Of a DNA stretch of 25,906 bases, positions 2,886 to 25,483 are shown piece by piece. The notes below the pieces were generated by a model. That model saw only the letters and a list, made by a program, of their open reading frames with translations. It had not been told where the DNA came from and searched no databases. Origin of the DNA: a virus (lineage: Duplodnaviria; Heunggongvirae; Uroviricota; Caudoviricetes); IMG/VR virus record IMGVR_UViG_2740892258_000020, one strand, 5' to 3'. Every line of letters begins with the position of its first letter. The stretch's first letter is position 1. Position numbers and translations under genes: made by a program.

Positions 2886-3392
2886 TTAACAGTCGTAAAA
2901 TTCCGGGTCCCACAAACTTGCATCGCGCGGCATGGATTCTAAATTTTTCAGCCGCAAAATTCTGTCACACTCGACAAGAAGTTTTTGTTTTTGTTCGTCA
3001 ATTTCTACTTTTTTGTGTGCTGGCTCATCCCAGTAATCCAGAAGAAACGCATGTCGCTCAGACGTTACAAGATAAATCACATACACATCACTGGTTGGTA
3101 TTTTTTTATGCTTGTTGGTGGTCTTGTCTTTCTTCCCGGATGCCCAGTTTTTCCAGCATTGTTCCGTACCGCTCTCACCAAACTTGTCAGTATAGTTTCC
3201 GATGTTTACGTGAACGTGGCGTATGTGATATTCCAGCATCTCTTTCGGTGGATCCCGAAACAGAGTGTCCTTTCCGAAATCCTTATGATGACCGTAGCGC
3301 CAGTGATCTATGAACGCGTTTTTGATAGGTATTAGCTCAGGGTCCTTCCCAAAAATTCCAGGGTGAACCAACCCCTGGAATTTATTCAGCAT
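2886..3392 (-). CDS. YafO-family toxin-like protein (168 aa), probable mRNA-interferase type toxin
   Basis: Motifs resembling E. coli YafO as I recall it: PGIFGKD (YafO PDIFGRD), HVHVNIGNYTDKF (YafO IHLANENNPF), VYVIYLVTSERHAFLLDYWDEPAHKK (YafO HLVYCQGAFDEQAWLLIAILKPEPHK), plus a Lys-rich insertion. Start at ATG 3392..3390 with AGGAG 10 nt upstream; it overlaps the stop of the upstream gene by 11 nt. The ORF-track start at 3497 would give an implausible Arg/Ser/Cys-rich N-terminus. Confidence 0.5.
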   Translation of the reverse strand: MLNKFQGLVHPGIFGKDPELIPIKNAFIDHWRYGHHKDFGKDTLFRDPPKEMLEYHIRHVHVNIGNYTDKFGESGTEQCWKNWASGKKDKTTNKHKKIPTSDVYVIYLVTSERHAFLLDYWDEPAHKKVEIDEQKQKLLVECDRILRLKNLESMPRDASLWDPEFYDC

Positions 3393-3801
3393 CGTCGTAG
3401 AGCTCCTGAGCCATATCTTCGGCAGTGCGTGCAAACATCCTGCGCGAGATTGCATGAGATTTCTCGACGGACATCTTTGGGACCTCATGCATAACATTTT
3501 TGGGAGTTGTGTAATAGCCTATTACAATTTTCACACCTGACTTATGATTAATATCAGCATAATATACTTCTTGTTCAGACGTTTCACGACGAACATAATC
3601 TGCCAGTTTTCCACATTTAAATTCCCCTCCCTGATGTTTTAAAATCTCCTCAACTGCACTATTTTCAGTGAAATACCGAATAAGAAATTTCTGTCCAGAC
3701 TCTTCAGCATGAGGTATAACAGTATTATTGGAAGCCCGAACAATGGCCTTACTCAATATTTCATGGTCTTTATTTTTTTCTGATTTCCTCAAATGCTGCA
3801 T
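3382..3801 (-). CDS. unknown 139-aa protein translationally coupled to the toxin-like gene; candidate antitoxin or sensor partner
   Basis: ATG at 3801 with GAGAG upstream (ORF-track start at 3837 is TTG). Its stop lies inside the first codons of the downstream gene. Does not resemble YafN/Phd-type or RelB/RHH antitoxins that I can recognise. AT-rich. Confidence 0.6.
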   Translation of the reverse strand: MQHLRKSEKNKDHEILSKAIVRASNNTVIPHAEESGQKFLIRYFTENSAVEEILKHQGGEFKCGKLADYVRRETSEQEVYYADINHKSGVKIVIGYYTTPKNVMHEVPKMSVEKSHAISRRMFARTAEDMAQELYDDAE

Positions 3802-3933
3802 TACTGTAGCTCTCTTCGTGTTCACGGGCACCCCCAACTACCTCTAGGGTAAACATTCTATCGAAAGTATACGCATACTGGCAAAAAAATAGGCAGGTAT
3901 TTTCTGAAATGGGATCAATCAAACCACATAGGG

Positions 3934-3977
3934 TTGAAATAACGTGAGTTATGCATTTATTATTACCTTTGCGGTAA
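3934..3977 (+). promoter_or_regulatory. sigma70-like promoter (TTGAAA-17/18-TATTAT) overlapped at the -10/+1 region by operator palindrome site 2 (ATTACC-TTTGC-GGTAA, 3962..3977)
   Basis: Good -35 and -10 hexamers with correct spacing; palindrome begins inside the -10. Points toward the Bro-N gene. Confidence 0.5.
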
Positions 3978-4069
3978 ATTTACATCGCACTCCTCTTGTG
4001 CCATAGTAATCGGGCACTGGAAAAATCCAGTGCCGGGATTGGCGTCCCGGATTACTAAAAGGCGCATTC

Positions 4070-4090
4070 ACCGCGCAAGCGGTTTTTTTA
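4070..4090 (+). terminator. intrinsic terminator-like hairpin (CCGC-GCAA-GCGG with GNRA loop, then 7 T) inside the 5-prime leader of the Bro-N gene
   Basis: ACCGCGCAAGCGGTTTTTTTAT about 100 nt downstream of the promoter and about 155 nt upstream of the Bro-N ATG; preceded by two further stem-loops (4011..4036 and 4034..4050). Confidence 0.4.
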
Positions 4091-4246
4091 TGCGTATAGC
4101 ACGGCCACATTCGTATTATGGTGGGCTGTGTGGGGGCACCGAAAGGTGCGCCGGGTCCTTTTAGCCGGTTACGCCAACCCTGCACAGTTCACCACCAACC
4201 GATTGGCGTCGGTAGTGGTGATTAACCAGACTAAAAGGTAACCACT

Positions 4247-4942
4247 ATGACAGCTACAAAAAGCACGTCCATTTTTTCTTTCGAATCCCAAGCCGATATA
4301 CGGGTAATCGTCATTAATGGTGAGCCATGGTTTATCGCTTCAGATGTTTGTCGGGCTATAGGCATAGCAAATCATCGAGATGCTGTTCGAAAACTTGATG
4401 ATGATGAGAAGGGCGTCGCTTCAACCGACACCCCTGGCGGTGAGCAAGAATCGATCATCATCTCCGAGTCAGGCCTCTACACACTGATCCTCCGCTGCCG
4501 CGACGCAGTGACACCAGGCACTATCCCCTACCGCTTTCGTAAATGGGTTACAGGTGAGGTTCTTCCTCAGATCCGCCGCACCGGAAGTTACATTAAAAAC
4601 TCGCTCCCGCAGGAAGAACGCATAAAGATGGTTGCCGACCAGGTAGCCAACGCCACAGCATCAGCAGTGATGCAGGCAATGAAGATAGAGAACAAAACCT
4701 ACAGTGCCCCACTGAAGCCCGGCTACCGCAGCCTGATTCATTCGCCGTCTGGTGTTCTCGGCCTGACGGAGAACTCACTGCTGATGAATCTGCTGAACCA
4801 GTTACAGGAAGACGGGCACGACGTATCGGGCGCGGCGGCGGAGCTGACCACCATGTTCTGCTACATCGTCGGTGTGAGCAAGTGCCTGCGTGATATCCAG
4901 ACGCACGCGGAGTACATCAACGACAAGGCTGGGTTCTTCTGA
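4247..4942 (+). CDS. Bro-N domain phage antirepressor-like protein (231 aa) with a C-terminal domain shared with the 85-aa protein
   Basis: N-terminus FSFESQADIRVIVINGEPWFIASDVCRAIGIANHRDAVRKLDDDEK...ESGLYTLILRCRDAVTPGTIPYRFRKWVTGEVLPQIRRTG is the canonical Bro-N (phage antirepressor N-terminal) signature. Confidence 0.8.
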   Translation: MTATKSTSIFSFESQADIRVIVINGEPWFIASDVCRAIGIANHRDAVRKLDDDEKGVASTDTPGGEQESIIISESGLYTLILRCRDAVTPGTIPYRFRKWVTGEVLPQIRRTGSYIKNSLPQEERIKMVADQVANATASAVMQAMKIENKTYSAPLKPGYRSLIHSPSGVLGLTENSLLMNLLNQLQEDGHDVSGAAAELTTMFCYIVGVSKCLRDIQTHAEYINDKAGFF

Positions 4943-4979: not shown

Positions 4980-5023
4980 TTGGCGATGTGATGTAGATTC
5001 GCGTAATATTACCTTACGGGTAA
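4980..5023 (+). promoter_or_regulatory. sigma70-like promoter (TTGGCG-18-TAATAT) overlapped by operator palindrome site 3 (ATTACC-TTACG-GGTAA, 5008..5023)
   Basis: Same promoter/operator geometry as at 3934..3977; about 60 nt upstream of the 210-aa gene. Confidence 0.45.
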
Positions 5024-6857: not shown

Positions 6858-9800
6858 CTATTTCATCTGCTCTTCAACTTTATTTAGTAACGGTGATATT
6901 GCCCACAGGTTCTGAAAAGGTAGCATTTTACGGACCGCGTGGGTTTGCTGGCTGTCAAATTCTCCGTTAAGTACACCATTCGCAACCGTCGCGGCATCAC
7001 CGCCAAGATCAAAGGTAGGACCAAGTAAAGCACCAATAGCATTACGACTCTGAAACCTTGATACCGGAGGCGCACCAAACATCGCGCCAAGACCAAACCT
7101 ACCGCCGCTTATGTTCTCAACGGTATTCAGCGGCTCAGAGAGCCAGCCAAGCATTCCGCCCCGGTCGATCCCCTCTTTCACAAGGTTATTCCAGCTGTAG
7201 TCAATATCGCGACCGCTTAACTTCTGTTTCATCATATAGACCATTGAGCCAAGCGCAATCGTGCCAAGCGCACCAAGATAGAATGCAGCATCGCCCTGCT
7301 GGATACCAGATACCAGCACCCTGTTATGCTGTGCGAAGATAAACGTTTTGAACTGCGTGATCATCTTCCAGCCTTCTTTACTAAAAAACAGCGGTGTATC
7401 ACCTACGCCAGGCGTTACAATCACTGAGTCTACATCTTTCAGCACTGCAGACTGGAAAATCTCTCTAGCGAAACGGTCATCCCACAGATGACTATGCCCG
7501 GTTAACAGCCCGTCCATATCCTCTCCGTGCTTCCCGAATTGCTCCCCGATTCGGCGCAGAACATCTTCATTGATGCCGACCTGTGCCATCTTCCGCATTT
7601 CACTTTTGGAGAGCGTGCCACCAGCAGAAACTTGGCGAGCCGCGTCAAGTATCCTCGACTGCACTATCATCCCGGACCATGATTTAAGTGCGCTGTTCCA
7701 CTGATTCATCAGCGTCCAGTTACCGAATTTCTGCGTCATCCAGTTCAGGCCTCGCTCAGCGGCGCTTCTCCGGCTATATGGGTCAGTAAGATCCGCTATA
7801 GCCTTTGTACGCGTAGACAGGACATAATCAAGCCCAACGGCCATTTCTCGCAAATCCCTGGTTGCAATTTTCACTGAGTCCATATTTTTAAGCATGCTTA
7901 CCATTGGTCCGAGAGATTTTCTCAGGCCATGCTGCATCATCGGTCGCATCAGATCAGTTGCAGCGGAGACAGTCATTCCACCAAGCAAACGGAGGAAGTT
8001 AATATTCCTAGCAACTCGCCCGGCACGAACAAAGAAACTGCGTGGATCTTGAGGTGCACCGTAAGTACCAAGCAGTCGATCACGCATAGCCGTAATATCC
8101 CTAATATCAGCCTCCCGTTGCTTCTCAAGAACTGCACGTCGTTTAGGCGTTTTAGCCTCTTTTATTAGCCGGGTATATTCCTCACTAACCTGACGGATTT
8201 GCTCCCCCATATCTTTACGGCCAAACTGCGCAGTCAGCTCAATTTCTGGTGCCACCTGCCGGAGATAACTTTCCATGATGTAGTTAACATCTGATTCAAG
8301 AAAATCTTCTATACGCTCATCAGGAATAAGCAGCGTTCTGCTTTTAGTGAAACCAGCCCGACCAACGAGTCTCTCTGGGATAATATCGGCTGGTACAAGC
8401 CCGGAAGGTGCACCTATTATTTTATTCACGATCTCGTCAGCAGCGTCCTCTGCTTCCTCTCGGGATAGAGGCTCCATCTGCTTCAGTGCTCGTTCGCGGC
8501 TTGCATTCAGCCTTGTGGTTGAATTTGCCCGTTTTTGCAGTCGGCGAAGCTCAGAACGATATTTCCGTGGATTATCCAGCAACTCCATATGGCGCTGATA
8601 GACAGGAAGCTCACTCTTTGCCTGCGCTATATCATCAAGGCGTGTTTTAAGGTCAGAGCTTTCTTTCATCATTCTTGCCTGAAGTTTTTCTGATGAAGTC
8701 TCGGCCAACTCTTTTTCTATTCTTGTAAGACGCGCCTGTGTGTCAGTCTCCTGAGATATAAGCTTATTTCGTTTATCCAGTTCTTCCATGAGTAGAATTT
8801 TTTTACCAGACCATTTCTCCGCTTCAGCGATTTCACTAGCGAGAGCATCAGCGCGCGGTGCCGATTCCTCTGCAGTTTTTAGCAATGAATTTATCCTTTC
8901 AATTCGCTGACCTGCCTTGTCAGCACCTTTGGCACTAATCCCTTGTATCCAGTTGGCAATTCGCCCTCTGAATTCAGTGCGGTCGGAAAGTATCTTATCG
9001 AACTTATAAATGCGGGGAAGATAACTTTTCGCCGTCACGACATCGATATCCTCAGGAAGGATCCCCAGTTCCTGCATACGGGCTTTTGTGGTCTCGAAAA
9101 TGGGGCGGATTCTGGCAGCTGCTTGTGAAACCTCAGGAATATCACTCTGATCACCACGGCGCATAGCCATGCCAACAGCTTCATTGAAATCAATAAAGTT
9201 CATCCTCTTCACGCCGCGGGCGCTAACAGATTTGCTGTACTGCTGGTAAGCATCACGAGTGGCTTCCATCTGCTTATAAAGCATGGCGTCGTATTGCTTA
9301 ATCTTAGTCTCGACTGCCGTAAACGTAGCCAACCCCTCATCATTTTTGGCGAAGAAATAGTTATTTTCGGCAAGCTGCTGGTTAATCTGACGGGAGACAA
9401 GAGATGGTGATTGCGCCAAGCGGCCAGCAGGAGTGACACTCAACGTTTTGTTAGCAAGTCCAAGTCCAGCGAGCTGTTCCTGATCGAGTGTGGTATTGAA
9501 AACCTGAGCTGCACCAATGCTTTGAGGAGAATCCATACCTCGCAAATGATTACCTACTGAGTTAACCACTGCCTCGCGCGCGCCAGGTCCAGCAAGTAGC
9601 TGTGCACCAGCACCAAGGATCCCACCAACGAGAGCATCAACAACAACGTTCGATACGCTCTCCATCGGTGAGCGAGCTTCCTGAGTGGCCTGTAATGCGG
9701 CCTCTGAAGCAACACTGCCAGCAGCATTCGCCAGGGCAAAACGCCCGGCTGTTTCTGCAATACGACCGCCACGAACGACAGCGCCGAACGGAATAAACAT

Positions 9801-10247: not shown

Positions 10248-12994
10248 TATTTGCCCCCTGCGTATATATTGCTCGGAAGGTAATTGGCTGAACCATAACC
10301 GAATGGTTTGGTCAGATCTGGAGGAGTATATCCATCTTTATTGCTGAACTGCGGCAGCGGATTGCCTTCTCTCCGCACTCTAGCCTCATCAACACGCTGT
10401 TGCTGGAACTGAATGGTTTGCCTGTACATTGGAGATGTCAGCTGATCCGGCTTGAAACGAACAGGGAGACCATTTTCTCCAATATAATTTCTCGGTTCTA
10501 TCGCTCCGTTTGCGTCAGGCTGTAAAACCATAACAGCATAACTCCTATCCCTTGCCGTAAGGCCATCAGAAACAAGTATTAAGTCCGTATCACTGCGAGG
10601 ACCGCCAAAGGATTTTGATTTAAGCTCGCGTTTTTCCTGCTCCCACTGCCCCTGTATCCAGTTACCAGCACCATTATTTACTCCGTACAATGCCTCAGGT
10701 GCATACTTCATAACCTCTGCTTTGCCATTAACTGTAGAAACTCCCCAGGTGGTTCTGATCATGGCATTGGTCATTTTCTCAGCCTGTTCTGCATCGCCAC
10801 CTGTCTGTACAAAGTTAGCATCGTAAATTGTCTGGTAATCTCGCTGATAGGCCGCATTTGATTTTCCTGGATCGGTAATATCCGGAGACCACGAACCAAA
10901 GGAAGTCAGACTGCTGGCGTTATTTTGTGCAGCAGTTGCCCTCGCCGCGACATATTTTTTGTCTCGCATGGCAGTGGAAAGCATCTGTTTCATTCGGTCA
11001 TCCTGTTGGAACACCTGGCTGTAAGCCATATCAACAGCCTTATCCTCCGGCACGCCAGCGCGGGAATAATCGTAAACCTTGCCGTAAAATGCCATCGTAC
11101 TTTTATCAAGTGTTGCCGCTGCCGCCGGATTATTATCAAATAACTGACCGTAGAATTTTGCCATCGGGACAACCAGCGCAGGATCTCTTGATGTTGCTCC
11201 ACTGTTAAGCATTGTTTTAACCTGAGTTGGTATCATGCCGCTTTTAGTTGTGACGGTGACCAGTGTATTGATGCTCTGCGGATCAGATATGGAAAACGAA
11301 GGCGCGATATCCTGCGCGAAATAACGGTCTACCGCTGCCTGATTGTTTTTGTCGTTCGGGTCCAGCGGGAAGTTATTTTGCATTGAAGACACGAACCTGT
11401 TTCTTCCCTGCTGAATCTCCCACTCCCTATCCATCTCTTTAAATTTGGCCTGCATTTTCTCCCAGCGTTGCTGGTTAGCTGCAAATCCAGGAGCGTTTGG
11501 ATCCTGTGGACGTAAACGTTCAAGAATGTCTTGTCGTCCTTCTGGAGTGAGGTCTTTAGCGGCACCAATGACACCTCCATATTGTATCTGCGCCTGCATA
11601 TCCTTCCACTTCATAGCGCCAATGCGCGGACCATTGGCCCGGATAAAATCGTCCTCAGAAGGTAACTTCTCAGGTTTCAATCCTTCATCAAGGGCTGAAT
11701 ATGCATCTTTAACTACGGTGCTAAGCTGGTCCGCATACTGCTGGCGGTACTGATTTCTCAGCTCATTAGCCTGCCTCAATGCCTGTATTTGCATTTGAGG
11801 GCTCATAGCGTCAAATGCCGCATTGCCCGTATAACGCTTAGGTGAATCAAGGTTAGTTAGACCAAGGGATGCCGAGATACCAGTTTCAAGCTGTTCGGTG
11901 CTATAAGGCATACTGCCATTTTCGTGTTTAATAATCCCAGCACATAAAGCAGCTAGTGTCTTTGGGTTAGAGATATCAAGCTGATCATTCTCCCCAACAC
12001 CAAGCTCACTACACAATGCCCTAATATAAGCATCAGTATTATTACCATCACTAGCCGGAGCATAGCGATTAACAATCTCGCTAACGGTGTCATAGCCTTG
12101 ACGCTGGTAAGACAACATATTTTTACCCAACGCGCGGATTCCATGCTCAGGGGTAGCAAACGTTGCAAAACGTCCATCGCTACCGATCTGACCTTCCCAC
12201 GGGTTAGATTTGCTCGCTTCAATATTACCAGGGTTATTATTACGTAAACCACGAGCATCCAATGAATTACCATGTGATATTGCACGACTCACACCATCAA
12301 GATCCCCTGGCTCTCCATTAACCTGAAGAAACTCGTTGTATTTTTGAGCGATATTTCCTATCCATGCTTGCTGCCCCATTTGTTCCTTGAGCTGAGTTTT
12401 CTGCTGAACACGCCACCCATCAGGAAGCCCATGTGCATCAGCGTATTGATCAATAGATTCAAATCGCTGCTTGGCTAAATCGACAAATGCTTGGTTATCG
12501 CTATATAGCCCCGCAGACTGAGTGACAGCCAATGCATTTCCTGACAAATACGTTTGATCTTGGAATTGCTGAAACTGCCCAACTTCATATCGACGTGCCT
12601 GATTGTAATAAGACTGCATAGACTGCTGGAGTTGAAAGGATAATTTATTCCTTTCCTCACTTTCAGGAATTGAGCCTAATAATGCCTGAGCCCTTTCCTG
12701 CATATTTTTCATAACAGCGTCACTCTGACCAAGAGCGTTTTTACCCTGTTTAGAAATCAGCCCATTTTCAGGGTTGTTAATCTGGTCATCTGCAAATTGG
12801 TTAAATTGCAGTAACGCCTCCTGAGCCATAGCAACATTCGCTTTCTGCCTGGCTTCACCATATGCCACCGCATACTGATCTGCGACATTCGCCAGCACCT
12901 GACCTGCTTGAGGAACATCGAAGGTCTGAAAACCACCGGTTTGCACACCACGACTTTGCACCTGGCGTCCGGATGTAGTAGGAACAACTGGCAT
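10247..12994 (-). CDS. internal virion protein (915 aa), T7 gp15-position analogue; contains a conserved-looking block (LRNNNPGNIEASKSNPWEGQ...FATFATPEHGIRALGKN) that may be a cell-wall-interacting domain
   Basis: Position and size in the ejection-protein run; Gln/Asn-rich. Domain call is tentative recollection only. Confidence 0.5.
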   Translation of the reverse strand: MPVVPTTSGRQVQSRGVQTGGFQTFDVPQAGQVLANVADQYAVAYGEARQKANVAMAQEALLQFNQFADDQINNPENGLISKQGKNALGQSDAVMKNMQERAQALLGSIPESEERNKLSFQLQQSMQSYYNQARRYEVGQFQQFQDQTYLSGNALAVTQSAGLYSDNQAFVDLAKQRFESIDQYADAHGLPDGWRVQQKTQLKEQMGQQAWIGNIAQKYNEFLQVNGEPGDLDGVSRAISHGNSLDARGLRNNNPGNIEASKSNPWEGQIGSDGRFATFATPEHGIRALGKNMLSYQRQGYDTVSEIVNRYAPASDGNNTDAYIRALCSELGVGENDQLDISNPKTLAALCAGIIKHENGSMPYSTEQLETGISASLGLTNLDSPKRYTGNAAFDAMSPQMQIQALRQANELRNQYRQQYADQLSTVVKDAYSALDEGLKPEKLPSEDDFIRANGPRIGAMKWKDMQAQIQYGGVIGAAKDLTPEGRQDILERLRPQDPNAPGFAANQQRWEKMQAKFKEMDREWEIQQGRNRFVSSMQNNFPLDPNDKNNQAAVDRYFAQDIAPSFSISDPQSINTLVTVTTKSGMIPTQVKTMLNSGATSRDPALVVPMAKFYGQLFDNNPAAAATLDKSTMAFYGKVYDYSRAGVPEDKAVDMAYSQVFQQDDRMKQMLSTAMRDKKYVAARATAAQNNASSLTSFGSWSPDITDPGKSNAAYQRDYQTIYDANFVQTGGDAEQAEKMTNAMIRTTWGVSTVNGKAEVMKYAPEALYGVNNGAGNWIQGQWEQEKRELKSKSFGGPRSDTDLILVSDGLTARDRSYAVMVLQPDANGAIEPRNYIGENGLPVRFKPDQLTSPMYRQTIQFQQQRVDEARVRREGNPLPQFSNKDGYTPPDLTKPFGYGSANYLPSNIYAGGK

Positions 12995-22281: not shown

Positions 22282-22318
22282 TTGACATTTAACGCGTTAA
22301 TTATTACCTTTCAGGTAA
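22282..22318 (+). promoter_or_regulatory. TTGACA -35-like hexamer followed by operator palindrome site 4 (ATTACC-TTTCA-GGTAA, 22303..22318); possible plus-strand promoter for the tRNA/moron unit
   Basis: Consensus TTGACA at 22282..22287 with the palindrome centred where a -10 would be; the -10 match itself is poor. Confidence 0.4.
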
Positions 22319-22650
22319 CCAAAGGGCTCATTCTGGTTACTAACCTGACTGGCTTGTCGTTAAATTAAACAGGTGGAGTGAGCTTTTATTTTGAGCAGTA
22401 CGGCGTATGGCACATGCGCCGATAGCGGTCTGGATACGTTTAAGGGGCACCCTCCCTTGCTCGGGCAAACGAACCAGGTAGCCGGAATGTGCAAGTCGAG
22501 CGGTTTTATTCCGCGCACGGGGATTCACCATCCCGGCGATTCGGTGTGACGCCTCGGAAGAGACGAGGGTACAACGATGAGAGCATTTATGGAGCCGCGA
22601 CAAAGTGTGGCGCCTTAACAGGCTAAGTGCTCTCAGCGTTGTGGCATTAG

Positions 22651-22727
22651 CTCAGTTGGACAGAGCAACCGCCTTCTAAGCGGTTGGTCGCAGGTTCGAA
22701 TCCTGCATGCCACGCCAGAATCACGCC
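22651..22727 (+). tRNA. tRNA-Arg, anticodon UCU (reads AGA), phage-encoded
   Basis: Full cloverleaf: acceptor GTGGCAT/ATGCCAC, D-arm GCTC-AGTTGGACA-GAGC, anticodon stem ACCGC/GCGGT with loop CTTCTAA, T-arm GCAGG-TTCGAAT-CCTGC, discriminator G and encoded CCA. Similar to but distinct from host argU as I recall it. Confidence 0.9.
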
Positions 22728-24857: not shown

Positions 24858-25450
24858 TGATTGCCATCCTGGCGTTCTTTCAGTCTCTTCCTGGCTGCCG
24901 CTATGCGATCAGCAATTGTCACATTCACATTAACATCCAGGCGTTCTTTGAATGCGTTGACGTCGACGTGCTTACCAATCAGTTCGAGGTTCTTCACCTT
25001 GTCAGGCCATTTAATTTTTTTGAGGATTGTCTCTATCGAATCCTCGTTCATGTTCATGATGGTCGATGACAGATCAAAGCCACTAAGCGTAGTGCGCCAG
25101 ATTTTCGGCCACTCGCGGATTGGCTTAAGGCTCCCATCGTCGTTGAGGATGTCGATCACGTCCATCTGGTCGATCTCCACCAGGCGCATGAGAACGTAAT
25201 CAGCACTGACGCGCATTCGTTTGTTGCGCTCTTCCATCAGCTCGGCAATCCGTTTTTGAATGCGTTCATCGCGCATCATGAGACTGGCTTTAACTGCCGC
25301 TGTATTTGGGGAGAATCCTGCGTTAATCGCTGCCTGAGTCTGGTTTTCAGGCGTTTTGATGTATGACTGGCAATAAGCCTCCTGCATTGCTGTTAGTGGC
25401 TTAAATTGCGTTGATTTGCGTTTATAGGCTTTAGGTTCAGCAGGCATCAT
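24854..25450 (-). CDS. terminase small subunit (198 aa from ATG at 25450; ORF extends in frame to 25546)
   Basis: Immediately upstream of and overlapping the large terminase; region TAMQEAYCQSYIKTPENQTQAAINAGFSPNTAAVKASLMM matches the small-terminase pattern (conserved AA..AG.S..A..A motif). The upstream in-frame extension is low-complexity and contains palindromic repeats, so the shorter start is preferred. Confidence 0.75.
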   Translation of the reverse strand: MMPAEPKAYKRKSTQFKPLTAMQEAYCQSYIKTPENQTQAAINAGFSPNTAAVKASLMMRDERIQKRIAELMEERNKRMRVSADYVLMRLVEIDQMDVIDILNDDGSLKPIREWPKIWRTTLSGFDLSSTIMNMNEDSIETILKKIKWPDKVKNLELIGKHVDVNAFKERLDVNVNVTIADRIAAARKRLKERQDGNQ

Positions 25451-25466
25451 AACCACCGTGGTAATA

Positions 25467-25483
25467 GTTACCGTTGTGGTAAT
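25467..25483. promoter_or_regulatory. operator palindrome site 5 (GTTACC-GTTGT-GGTAAT) within a tandem array of GGTAAT/TTACC half-sites upstream of the small-terminase gene
   Basis: GTGGTAATAGTTACCGTTGTGGTAATAGTACC (25458..25489) contains TTACC-N5-GGTAA flanked by further GGTAAT and TACC half-sites. Confidence 0.45.

Follow-up and report, generated by a model that had tools for sequence, protein, structure and literature searches.

A probable immI/isrK-type control region with IsrK and C4 small RNAs ahead of a Bro-N antirepressor gene in a Uetakevirus-like prophage of Escherichia coli

The stretch of DNA analysed here, called the window in the following, is 25,906 nucleotides long and represents a Uetakevirus-type prophage whose closest phages were EC.W1-9, TL-2011b and phiV10. 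At positions 4247-4942 it carries ant, which encodes an antirepressor of 231 aa; the product matched Pfam Bro-N (2.3e-21) as well as PHROG 130, 'anti-repressor Ant' (3.7e-63). This gene is the regulated cargo of a module that adjoins the tailspike gene and has a YafO-family toxin pair as its upstream neighbours. The features of the module lie on the plus strand, and the palindromic operator-like site described below has no strand assigned to it. A tRNA-like element was also considered for the leader and rejected, as ARAGORN found only a tRNA-Arg at 22641.

An Rfam scan of the window placed an IsrK-family small RNA at 4014-4090. The isrK model (RF01394) matched 4014-4089 over model positions 1-77 with a score of 76.7 bits, against a gathering cut-off of 50. 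By folding, the RNA consists of hairpin 1 (4014-4033), hairpin 2 (4034-4049), a single-stranded linker and a Rho-independent terminator (4070-4090). The terminator has a 5-bp stem (ACCGC/GCGGU) and a GCAA loop at 4070-4083, followed by seven T residues at 4084-4090 (U7 in the RNA), and the hairpin has a folding energy of -8.1 kcal/mol. The first-pass annotation of this DNA, which was made from the letters alone, had described two stable stem-loops and then a GNRA-loop hairpin with a seven-T run; these are the three hairpins of IsrK. Its distance of about 155 nt from terminator to antirepressor was also accurate, the ATG at 4247 lying 157 nt after the T-run. The segment 4014-4090 folded at -30 kcal/mol (z = -3.27) and the longer segment 4014-4262 had a z score of -5.97; no shuffle folded equally well in either case. 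Among 71 relatives, compensatory changes were found at 9 of the 12 pairs of the IsrK hairpins. A further Rfam family, c4-a1b1 (RF03163, "a1, b1 targets of C4 antisense RNA"), matched at 4001-4053 with 41.7 bits (E = 3e-9), just below its gathering cut-off of 46.7, and membership of it is not claimed here. P1 and Gifsy-1 both passed that cut-off.

Downstream of the terminator, a C4 antisense RNA of 86 nt was found at 4114-4199, made of two hairpins enclosed by a long basal stem. The match to the P1/P7 c4 family (RF01695) was full-length (model positions 1-87) and scored 77.7 bits, against a gathering cut-off of 45 (E = 7e-14); the isrK and C4 models were thus both above their gathering scores, with E about 1e-14. 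The minimum-energy fold of C4 was the same as the Rfam consensus, at -45.6 kcal/mol (z = -4.70), and no shuffle folded equally well. In the C4 stems of 52 variants, 10 of the 24 pairs showed compensatory changes and 97.9% of cells were paired. In P1, c4 is excised from its precursor by RNase P. When the window was aligned to P1 c4 (48343-48419), a mature C4 RNA of 77 nt was predicted at 4120-4196, and its predicted ends, GGUGGG at 4120 and CACC followed by A at 4196, match the annotated ends of P1 c4. A 35-codon ORF at 4118-4225 overlaps C4 and is the positional counterpart of Gifsy-1 orf45. The C4 fold is the largest structure within 3934-4246 and takes up most of the gap between the terminator and ant; like the target sites described next, it had been missed by the first-pass annotation.

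Two short segments of C4 are complementary to sites on either side of it. The segment b' (CCUUUUAG, 4157-4164) lies in the loop of the second C4 hairpin; a' (ACGCCAA, 4171-4177) is in an unpaired junction. On the IsrK side, a1 (GAUUGGCGUC, 4037-4046) covers the loop of IsrK hairpin 2 together with its 3' arm and is complementary to a', while b1 (ACUAAAAGG, 4054-4062), in the single-stranded IsrK linker, is complementary to b'. On the ant side, a2 (GAUUGGCGUC, 4201-4210) in the 5' UTR is complementary to a', and b2 (ACUAAAAGG, 4230-4238) is complementary to b' in the Shine-Dalgarno (SD) region of ant, 8 nt ahead of the ATG. The sites are exact direct repeats, a1 and a2 of a 10-mer and b1 and b2 of a 9-mer, and they fall in unpaired parts of the IsrK and C4 folds. 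The local a and b duplexes amounted to about -9 to -15 kcal/mol for each site. Duplex energies of the whole sequences (C4 against IsrK or the ant UTR) were set aside, since they ignore intramolecular structure.

Viral contigs were pattern-scanned for the conserved C4 frame, which gave 120 loci; together with P1, Gifsy-1, phiV10 and the window these made up 87 distinct modules, with 47 distinct C4 cores, 8 variants of a' and 36 variants of loop 2 (b'). As a control, the sites were scored against the a' or b' of mismatched modules. An exact 7-mer complementary to the module's own a' was present at a1 in 85 of the 87 modules (mismatched control 1.4%) and at a2 in 86 (0.5%). Complementarity to the own b' extended over at least 6 nt at b1 in 66 modules (control 5.5%) and over at least 7 nt at b2 in 72 (control 2.8%). 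The positions of a1, b1, a2 and b2 were all fixed across the modules, that of a2 being +19 to +23, and in the related modules b2 invariably overlapped the next gene's SD or lay directly against it. Co-variation of this three-way kind argues strongly that the a/b pairings are functional. Furthermore, a hairpin with a T-run was found between b1 and C4 in 73/87 modules. The b1 site was short or missing in about a quarter of the modules, so that a decoy role may not be universal. The cargo after b2 is interchangeable and comprised antirepressors of the Bro-N, ORF6N (as AnrP of Gifsy-1), Rha or AntA types, or small ORFs resembling icd.

Two promoters precede these RNAs. The upstream promoter-like site at 3934-3963 (TTGAAA-18-TATTAT, 10/12 matches), from which the first-pass annotation had the leader transcribed, is indeed present. 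Taken alone it was at chance level, with 7 such sites against 6.3 expected in 3.5 kb. Both hexamers were retained in most of ten aligned Uetakevirus-type relatives, and the site was absent from the other lineages of the family whose upstream sequences were compared; it is lineage-specific and possibly an analogue of P51a of P1. The promoter conserved throughout the family is instead a sigma-70 promoter at 3979-4007 (TTTACA-17-CATAGT, with TG before the -10). Among 70 distinct upstream sequences, the arrangement of -35, 17 nt and -10 ended about 7 nt ahead of hairpin 1, and 3979-4007 aligned with the annotated P1 promoter P1c4 (P51b) and with the isrK promoter of Gifsy-1, for which the published isrK start is position 1 of the Rfam model. 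A transcription start near 4014 is therefore predicted from 3979-4007, which would give an IsrK of 77 nt, whereas the promoter at 3934 would extend the 5' end by 44 nt and give a species of about 120 nt. The small RNA of about 120 nt proposed earlier held up in that the terminator ends a discrete small RNA, of the IsrK family; its length would apply to the 3934 promoter and not to the conserved one.

A palindromic operator-like site, TTACC-N5-GGTAA, lies at 3963-3977; it follows the -10 of the upstream promoter at once and, at its other end, abuts the -35 of the conserved one. Its half-sites were retained and its spacer was variable among relatives. The same palindrome is dispersed in the window, where 5 exact copies and 2 copies with one mismatch were counted against 0.43 expected. 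The divergent upstream genes were considered as the source of the repressor that binds it and were rejected; they encode a YafO-family toxin and a partner annotated without a function. In the fold of a long isoform, 3997-4011 paired with 4050-4066, which masks part of b1. One could picture tandem promoters around one operator making two 5' isoforms of IsrK, of which the long one (start near 3970) would inhibit itself as a decoy and leave the titration of C4 to the short one alone, so that promoter choice by a repressor acting at the dispersed TTACC-N5-GGTAA sites would tune antirepressor release. We consider such a device unlikely.

The arrangement is not new. Both the isrK and the C4 models also matched in phiV10, APSE-7 and Gifsy-1, and in P1 only C4 was matched. 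In the immI region of P1/P7 (NC_005856), the same C4 Rfam family was found (68.8 bits in P1, 77.7 bits in the window), and P1 and the window have a common order: promoter, a1, b1, hairpin with T-run, C4 (b', a'), a2, b2 at the SD and the antirepressor operon. The gap between a1 and b1 is 7 nt in both, and that between a2 and b2 is 19 nt in the window and 22 nt in P1. As in the window, P1 has tandem promoters with an upstream repressor operator (Op51, P51a, P51b); the operator is a palindrome in the window and an asymmetric C1 site in P1. The position of b2 differs as well: it lies at the ribosome-binding site (RBS) of icd in P1 and on the SD of ant in the window, where icd is missing, no ORF having been found between b2 and ant. 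In P1, C4 acts on icd, and ant is affected only indirectly, by polarity. The antirepressor is of the Bro-N type in the window and is Ant1/2 in P1, and the carriers are a podovirus-type Uetakevirus and a plasmid prophage, respectively. The a/b codes are ACGCCAA/CCUUUUAG in the window and CUGUCAA/CACUAAC in P1, and this difference implies a different immunity specificity. The c4 antisense RNA of P1/P7 immI, with a1/b1, a2/b2, icd and ant, was reportedly described by Citron and Schuster in 1990.

In the isrK-orf45(STnc1160)-anrP locus of the Salmonella prophage Gifsy-1 (Hershko-Shalev et al. 2016, PMC4825925), the isrK and C4 models matched in the same arrangement, and the module DNA was about 72% identical. 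The a1 and a' sequences of Gifsy-1 are identical to those of the window; its b' is CGGUGAU and differs. In both, a terminator lies between IsrK and the C4-like RNA, and b2 adjoins the SD of the antirepressor gene. The Rfam C4 match in the Gifsy-1 locus (L003:1595-1678) means that orf45 overlaps a C4 homologue. The antirepressor is of the ORF6N type in Gifsy-1 and Bro-N in the window, and the Gifsy-1 module follows antQ in a lambdoid late region while that of the window stands beside the tailspike gene. In Gifsy-1, the isrK terminator was leaky and read-through was shown; the read-through isrK-orf45-anrP RNA was translationally silent, and a stable processed RNA, STnc1160, occurred downstream of IsrK (PMC4825925). 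When supplied in trans, IsrK raised anrP translation 139-fold and induced the prophage (PMC4825925). Hfq binding and trans-activation of antirepressor translation by IsrK have been reported for Gifsy-1 only. Furthermore, compensatory mutations there proved two pairs, G28-C162 and G31-C159 (PMC4825925 Table 1D). When we set the Gifsy-1 +1 at L003:1493, anchored on the published AUG positions of orf45, these two pairs turned out to be a1:a' pairs (UUGGCGU:ACGCCAA). The translation of orf45 contributed to anrP expression (PMC4825925 Table 1C), and the published model requires orf45 translation coupled to anrP (PMC4825925). orf45 overlaps the anrP start (AUGA), so translational coupling is possible there, whereas the ORF in the window ends 22 nt upstream of ant. 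As that ORF is also unconserved, the coupling step of Gifsy-1 may not apply to the window.

Modules of the same kind are known from other phages. For example, APSE phages of Hamiltonella defensa have the same module with a Bro-N cargo (DNA about 71% identical), and isrK, C4, a' and b' are already marked in their records before the Bro-N gene (Rouil et al. 2020, PMC7313666). APSE differs from the window in its a/b codes and its host, and the APSE module, too, is known from sequence. In P4, the CI RNA (seqA/seqC) is likewise a processed small RNA between two copies of its own target. P4 CI acts by transcription termination, unlike a block of the RBS. SeqA has been cited as a structural homologue of IsrK (PMC4825925).

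On these grounds, the region 3934-4246 is very probably the control region of an antirepressor operon of the P1-immI/Gifsy-1-isrK type in a Uetakevirus (phiV10/epsilon15-like) prophage of E. coli. The family membership, the structures, the complementarities, the three-way co-variation and the conservation of promoter and terminator were established directly here; what is carried over from P1 and Gifsy-1 is the processing of C4, the translational block, how leaky the terminator is, and that IsrK activates. Transcription would mainly initiate near 4014 from the promoter at 3979-4007, and most transcripts would end at the terminator at 4070-4090, which is weak and presumably leaky, to give the 77-nt IsrK. 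Some would continue past it and take in the C4 element and ant. C4 would be excised from the read-through transcript, with 4120-4196 as the predicted mature RNA, and its b' and a' would pair with b2 and a2, so that the RBS of ant is occluded and its translation is blocked. The antirepressor would thereby be kept off in the lysogen. As icd is missing, C4 would act directly on ant. In cis, a1 and b1 of IsrK would pair with C4 and make an inactive read-through isoform, and free IsrK would compete for a' and b' and relieve the repression. The a/b sequences would then serve as a code of immunity specificity. That the antirepressor is under RNA-level control had been expected from the first reading, and this part of it was supported.

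The same terminator could also be read as a classical attenuator, as the first-pass annotation proposed, in which 4070-4090 holds ant off and polymerase gets past only with the help of an antiterminator (protein or RNA) or of an alternative leader fold. There is a real terminator-like hairpin with U7 in the 5' leader, kept in 73/87 relatives; IsrK in trans raised a transcriptional fusion 8-fold in Gifsy-1 (PMC4825925 Table 1B), and the authors of that study speculated that the downstream RNA modulates termination like P4 CI (PMC4825925). However, when the leader was folded in search of terminator/antiterminator alternatives, no structure competed with the terminator: its hairpin was retained every time, in the minimum-energy and centroid folds of the 77-nt RNA (4014-4090) as well as of 3970-4090, 4014-4262 and 3970-4262, and no mutually exclusive antiterminator structure appeared, as far as folding can tell. 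Moreover, the main effect in Gifsy-1 was translational (139-fold, compared with 8-fold at the transcriptional level), and the co-varying a2 and b2 sit on the ribosome-binding site, away from the terminator. Attenuation is thus quite improbable as the principal control of ant, and the idea of a leader waiting for its antiterminator was given up in favour of the C4 block at the RBS.

The leader might instead mainly encode a small regulatory peptide (the ORF at 4118-4225, as the counterpart of orf45 or icd), and translation of it would gate ant in place of C4 pairing. The Rfam consensus of C4 retains the AUG at 4118, the frame is open into the downstream gene in 43/87 relatives, and orf45 translation aids anrP expression in Gifsy-1 (PMC4825925 Table 1C). 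Yet from this conserved AUG the ORFs of the 87 relatives ran for 8-45 codons or on (>68), with frame shifts between close relatives, and in one relative, L010, whose b' is that of the window, the frame closes after 17 codons. The amino-acid sequence of orf45 is variable too (review PMC12197685). In the window, the ORF had no Pfam match, no SD was found ahead of its AUG, and its stop precedes the ant ATG by 22 nt; the RNA stem accounts for the conservation. It is doubtful that this ORF is a real gene, and very unlikely that its translation gates ant. A third possibility follows from the P22-type immI analogy of the first-pass annotation, with an opposite-strand, sar-like antisense RNA and Arc/Mnt repressors controlling ant. 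The location beside the tailspike gene is like that of P22 immI, and there is a palindromic operator at the promoter. Against this, no minus-strand promoter-like site was found within 3900-4300, the neighbours gave no ribbon-helix-helix (Arc/Mnt) or other Pfam match, the upstream pair being the YafO-family toxin pair, and the two RNAs are members of same-strand families akin to P1 c4. A P22-like circuit is hardly credible at this locus, and the analogy had to be replaced: the homologues are the P1/P7 immI (c4) region and Gifsy-1 isrK.

In the reading preferred here, that of a C4 operon of the P1-immI/Gifsy-1-isrK type, both RNA families, their targets and the mechanism are already published, and the window holds an ordinary instance of a known element. 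The leader itself (4005-4250) was 100% identical to that of TL-2011b and of prophages in E. coli IHE3034 and APEC O18, and a relative was found in about 895 of 5,426 complete E. coli genomes. In phiV10, annotation is confined to a "terminator" and a "putative anti-immunity protein", and in RefSeq no RNA is annotated at the identical prophage stretch of IHE3034 and APEC O18. The analysis supplies a correct functional annotation for a stretch that is blank in RefSeq, and adds little else that is new. Lists often give IsrK as an sRNA of its own, as does a 2025 review (PMC12197685); the data show it to be the leader, terminated and carrying a1/b1, of a C4 operon of the P1 immI type. With 8 variants of a' and 36 of b', each with matched targets, such modules would encode many mutually orthogonal immunity specificities, and the a/b codes could help to predict heteroimmunity among prophages of E. 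coli and Salmonella.

The palindrome TTACC-N5-GGTAA was found seven times in the 26 kb of the window, against 0.43 copies expected, and none of the shuffled sequences contained seven. The copies are located at 2513-2527, 3838-3852 (one mismatch), 3963-3977, 5009-5023, 22304-22318, 25450-25464 (one mismatch) and 25468-25482, and those at 3963 and 5009 are immediately preceded by a -10-like hexamer. This set looks like a putative dispersed operator on which a single phage repressor would act, an arrangement that recalls how the C1 operators are scattered in P1.

Folding of the RNA from 3970 to 4090 predicted that 3997-4011 pairs with 4050-4066 (-53.6 kcal/mol, z = -6.1). In a transcript from the upstream promoter (3934-3963), the 5' extension would thus, in this model, pair with the IsrK linker and mask the start of b1, one of the segments complementary to the C4 antisense RNA. 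The helix was mostly preserved across nine lineage variants, with one A-U pair replaced by G-C and some changes involving G.U pairs. A second, self-masked IsrK isoform is weakly suggested.

Two IMG/VR contigs carry further modules of this type. In the relative L068, the b' loop of C4 (UCAUAGUGA) almost matches the -10 region of the module's own promoter (CCAUAGUGAUC) in the module upstream region, and therefore a transcript started further upstream would carry a mimic of b'. By its sequence, such a mimic could pair with b1 and with b2, the Shine-Dalgarno region of the antirepressor gene ant; the resemblance could also be a coincidence. The viral contig L020 contains two C4 modules (9726-9794 and 10382-10450) about 650 nt apart, whose a' and b' codes both differ from one module to the other. 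The pair would be tandem, orthogonal antirepressor switches within one phage.

The region upstream of the control region contains further genes. An 85-aa ORF on the plus strand (2604-2861), similar to epsilon15 p19, matched PHROGs 450 and 15539, and both families were also matched by the C-terminal domain of Ant (residues 148-231). This ORF may be a separate, free-standing copy of the antirepressor C-domain. The palindromic copy at 2513 is located upstream of it. Upstream of the control region there is also a divergent gene pair (2886-3392 and 3382-3825, both on the minus strand; PHROGs 1651 and 9503), annotated in the identical prophage of E. coli IHE3034 as a YafO-family type II toxin and a hypothetical partner. 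The pair is probably a toxin-antitoxin cargo, with the tailspike gene on one side of the insertion and the antirepressor module on the other. Elsewhere within the prophage, a tRNA-Arg gene with anticodon TCT is encoded on the plus strand (22641-22717), and the palindromic copy at 22304 lies upstream of it, beside a TTGACA hexamer.
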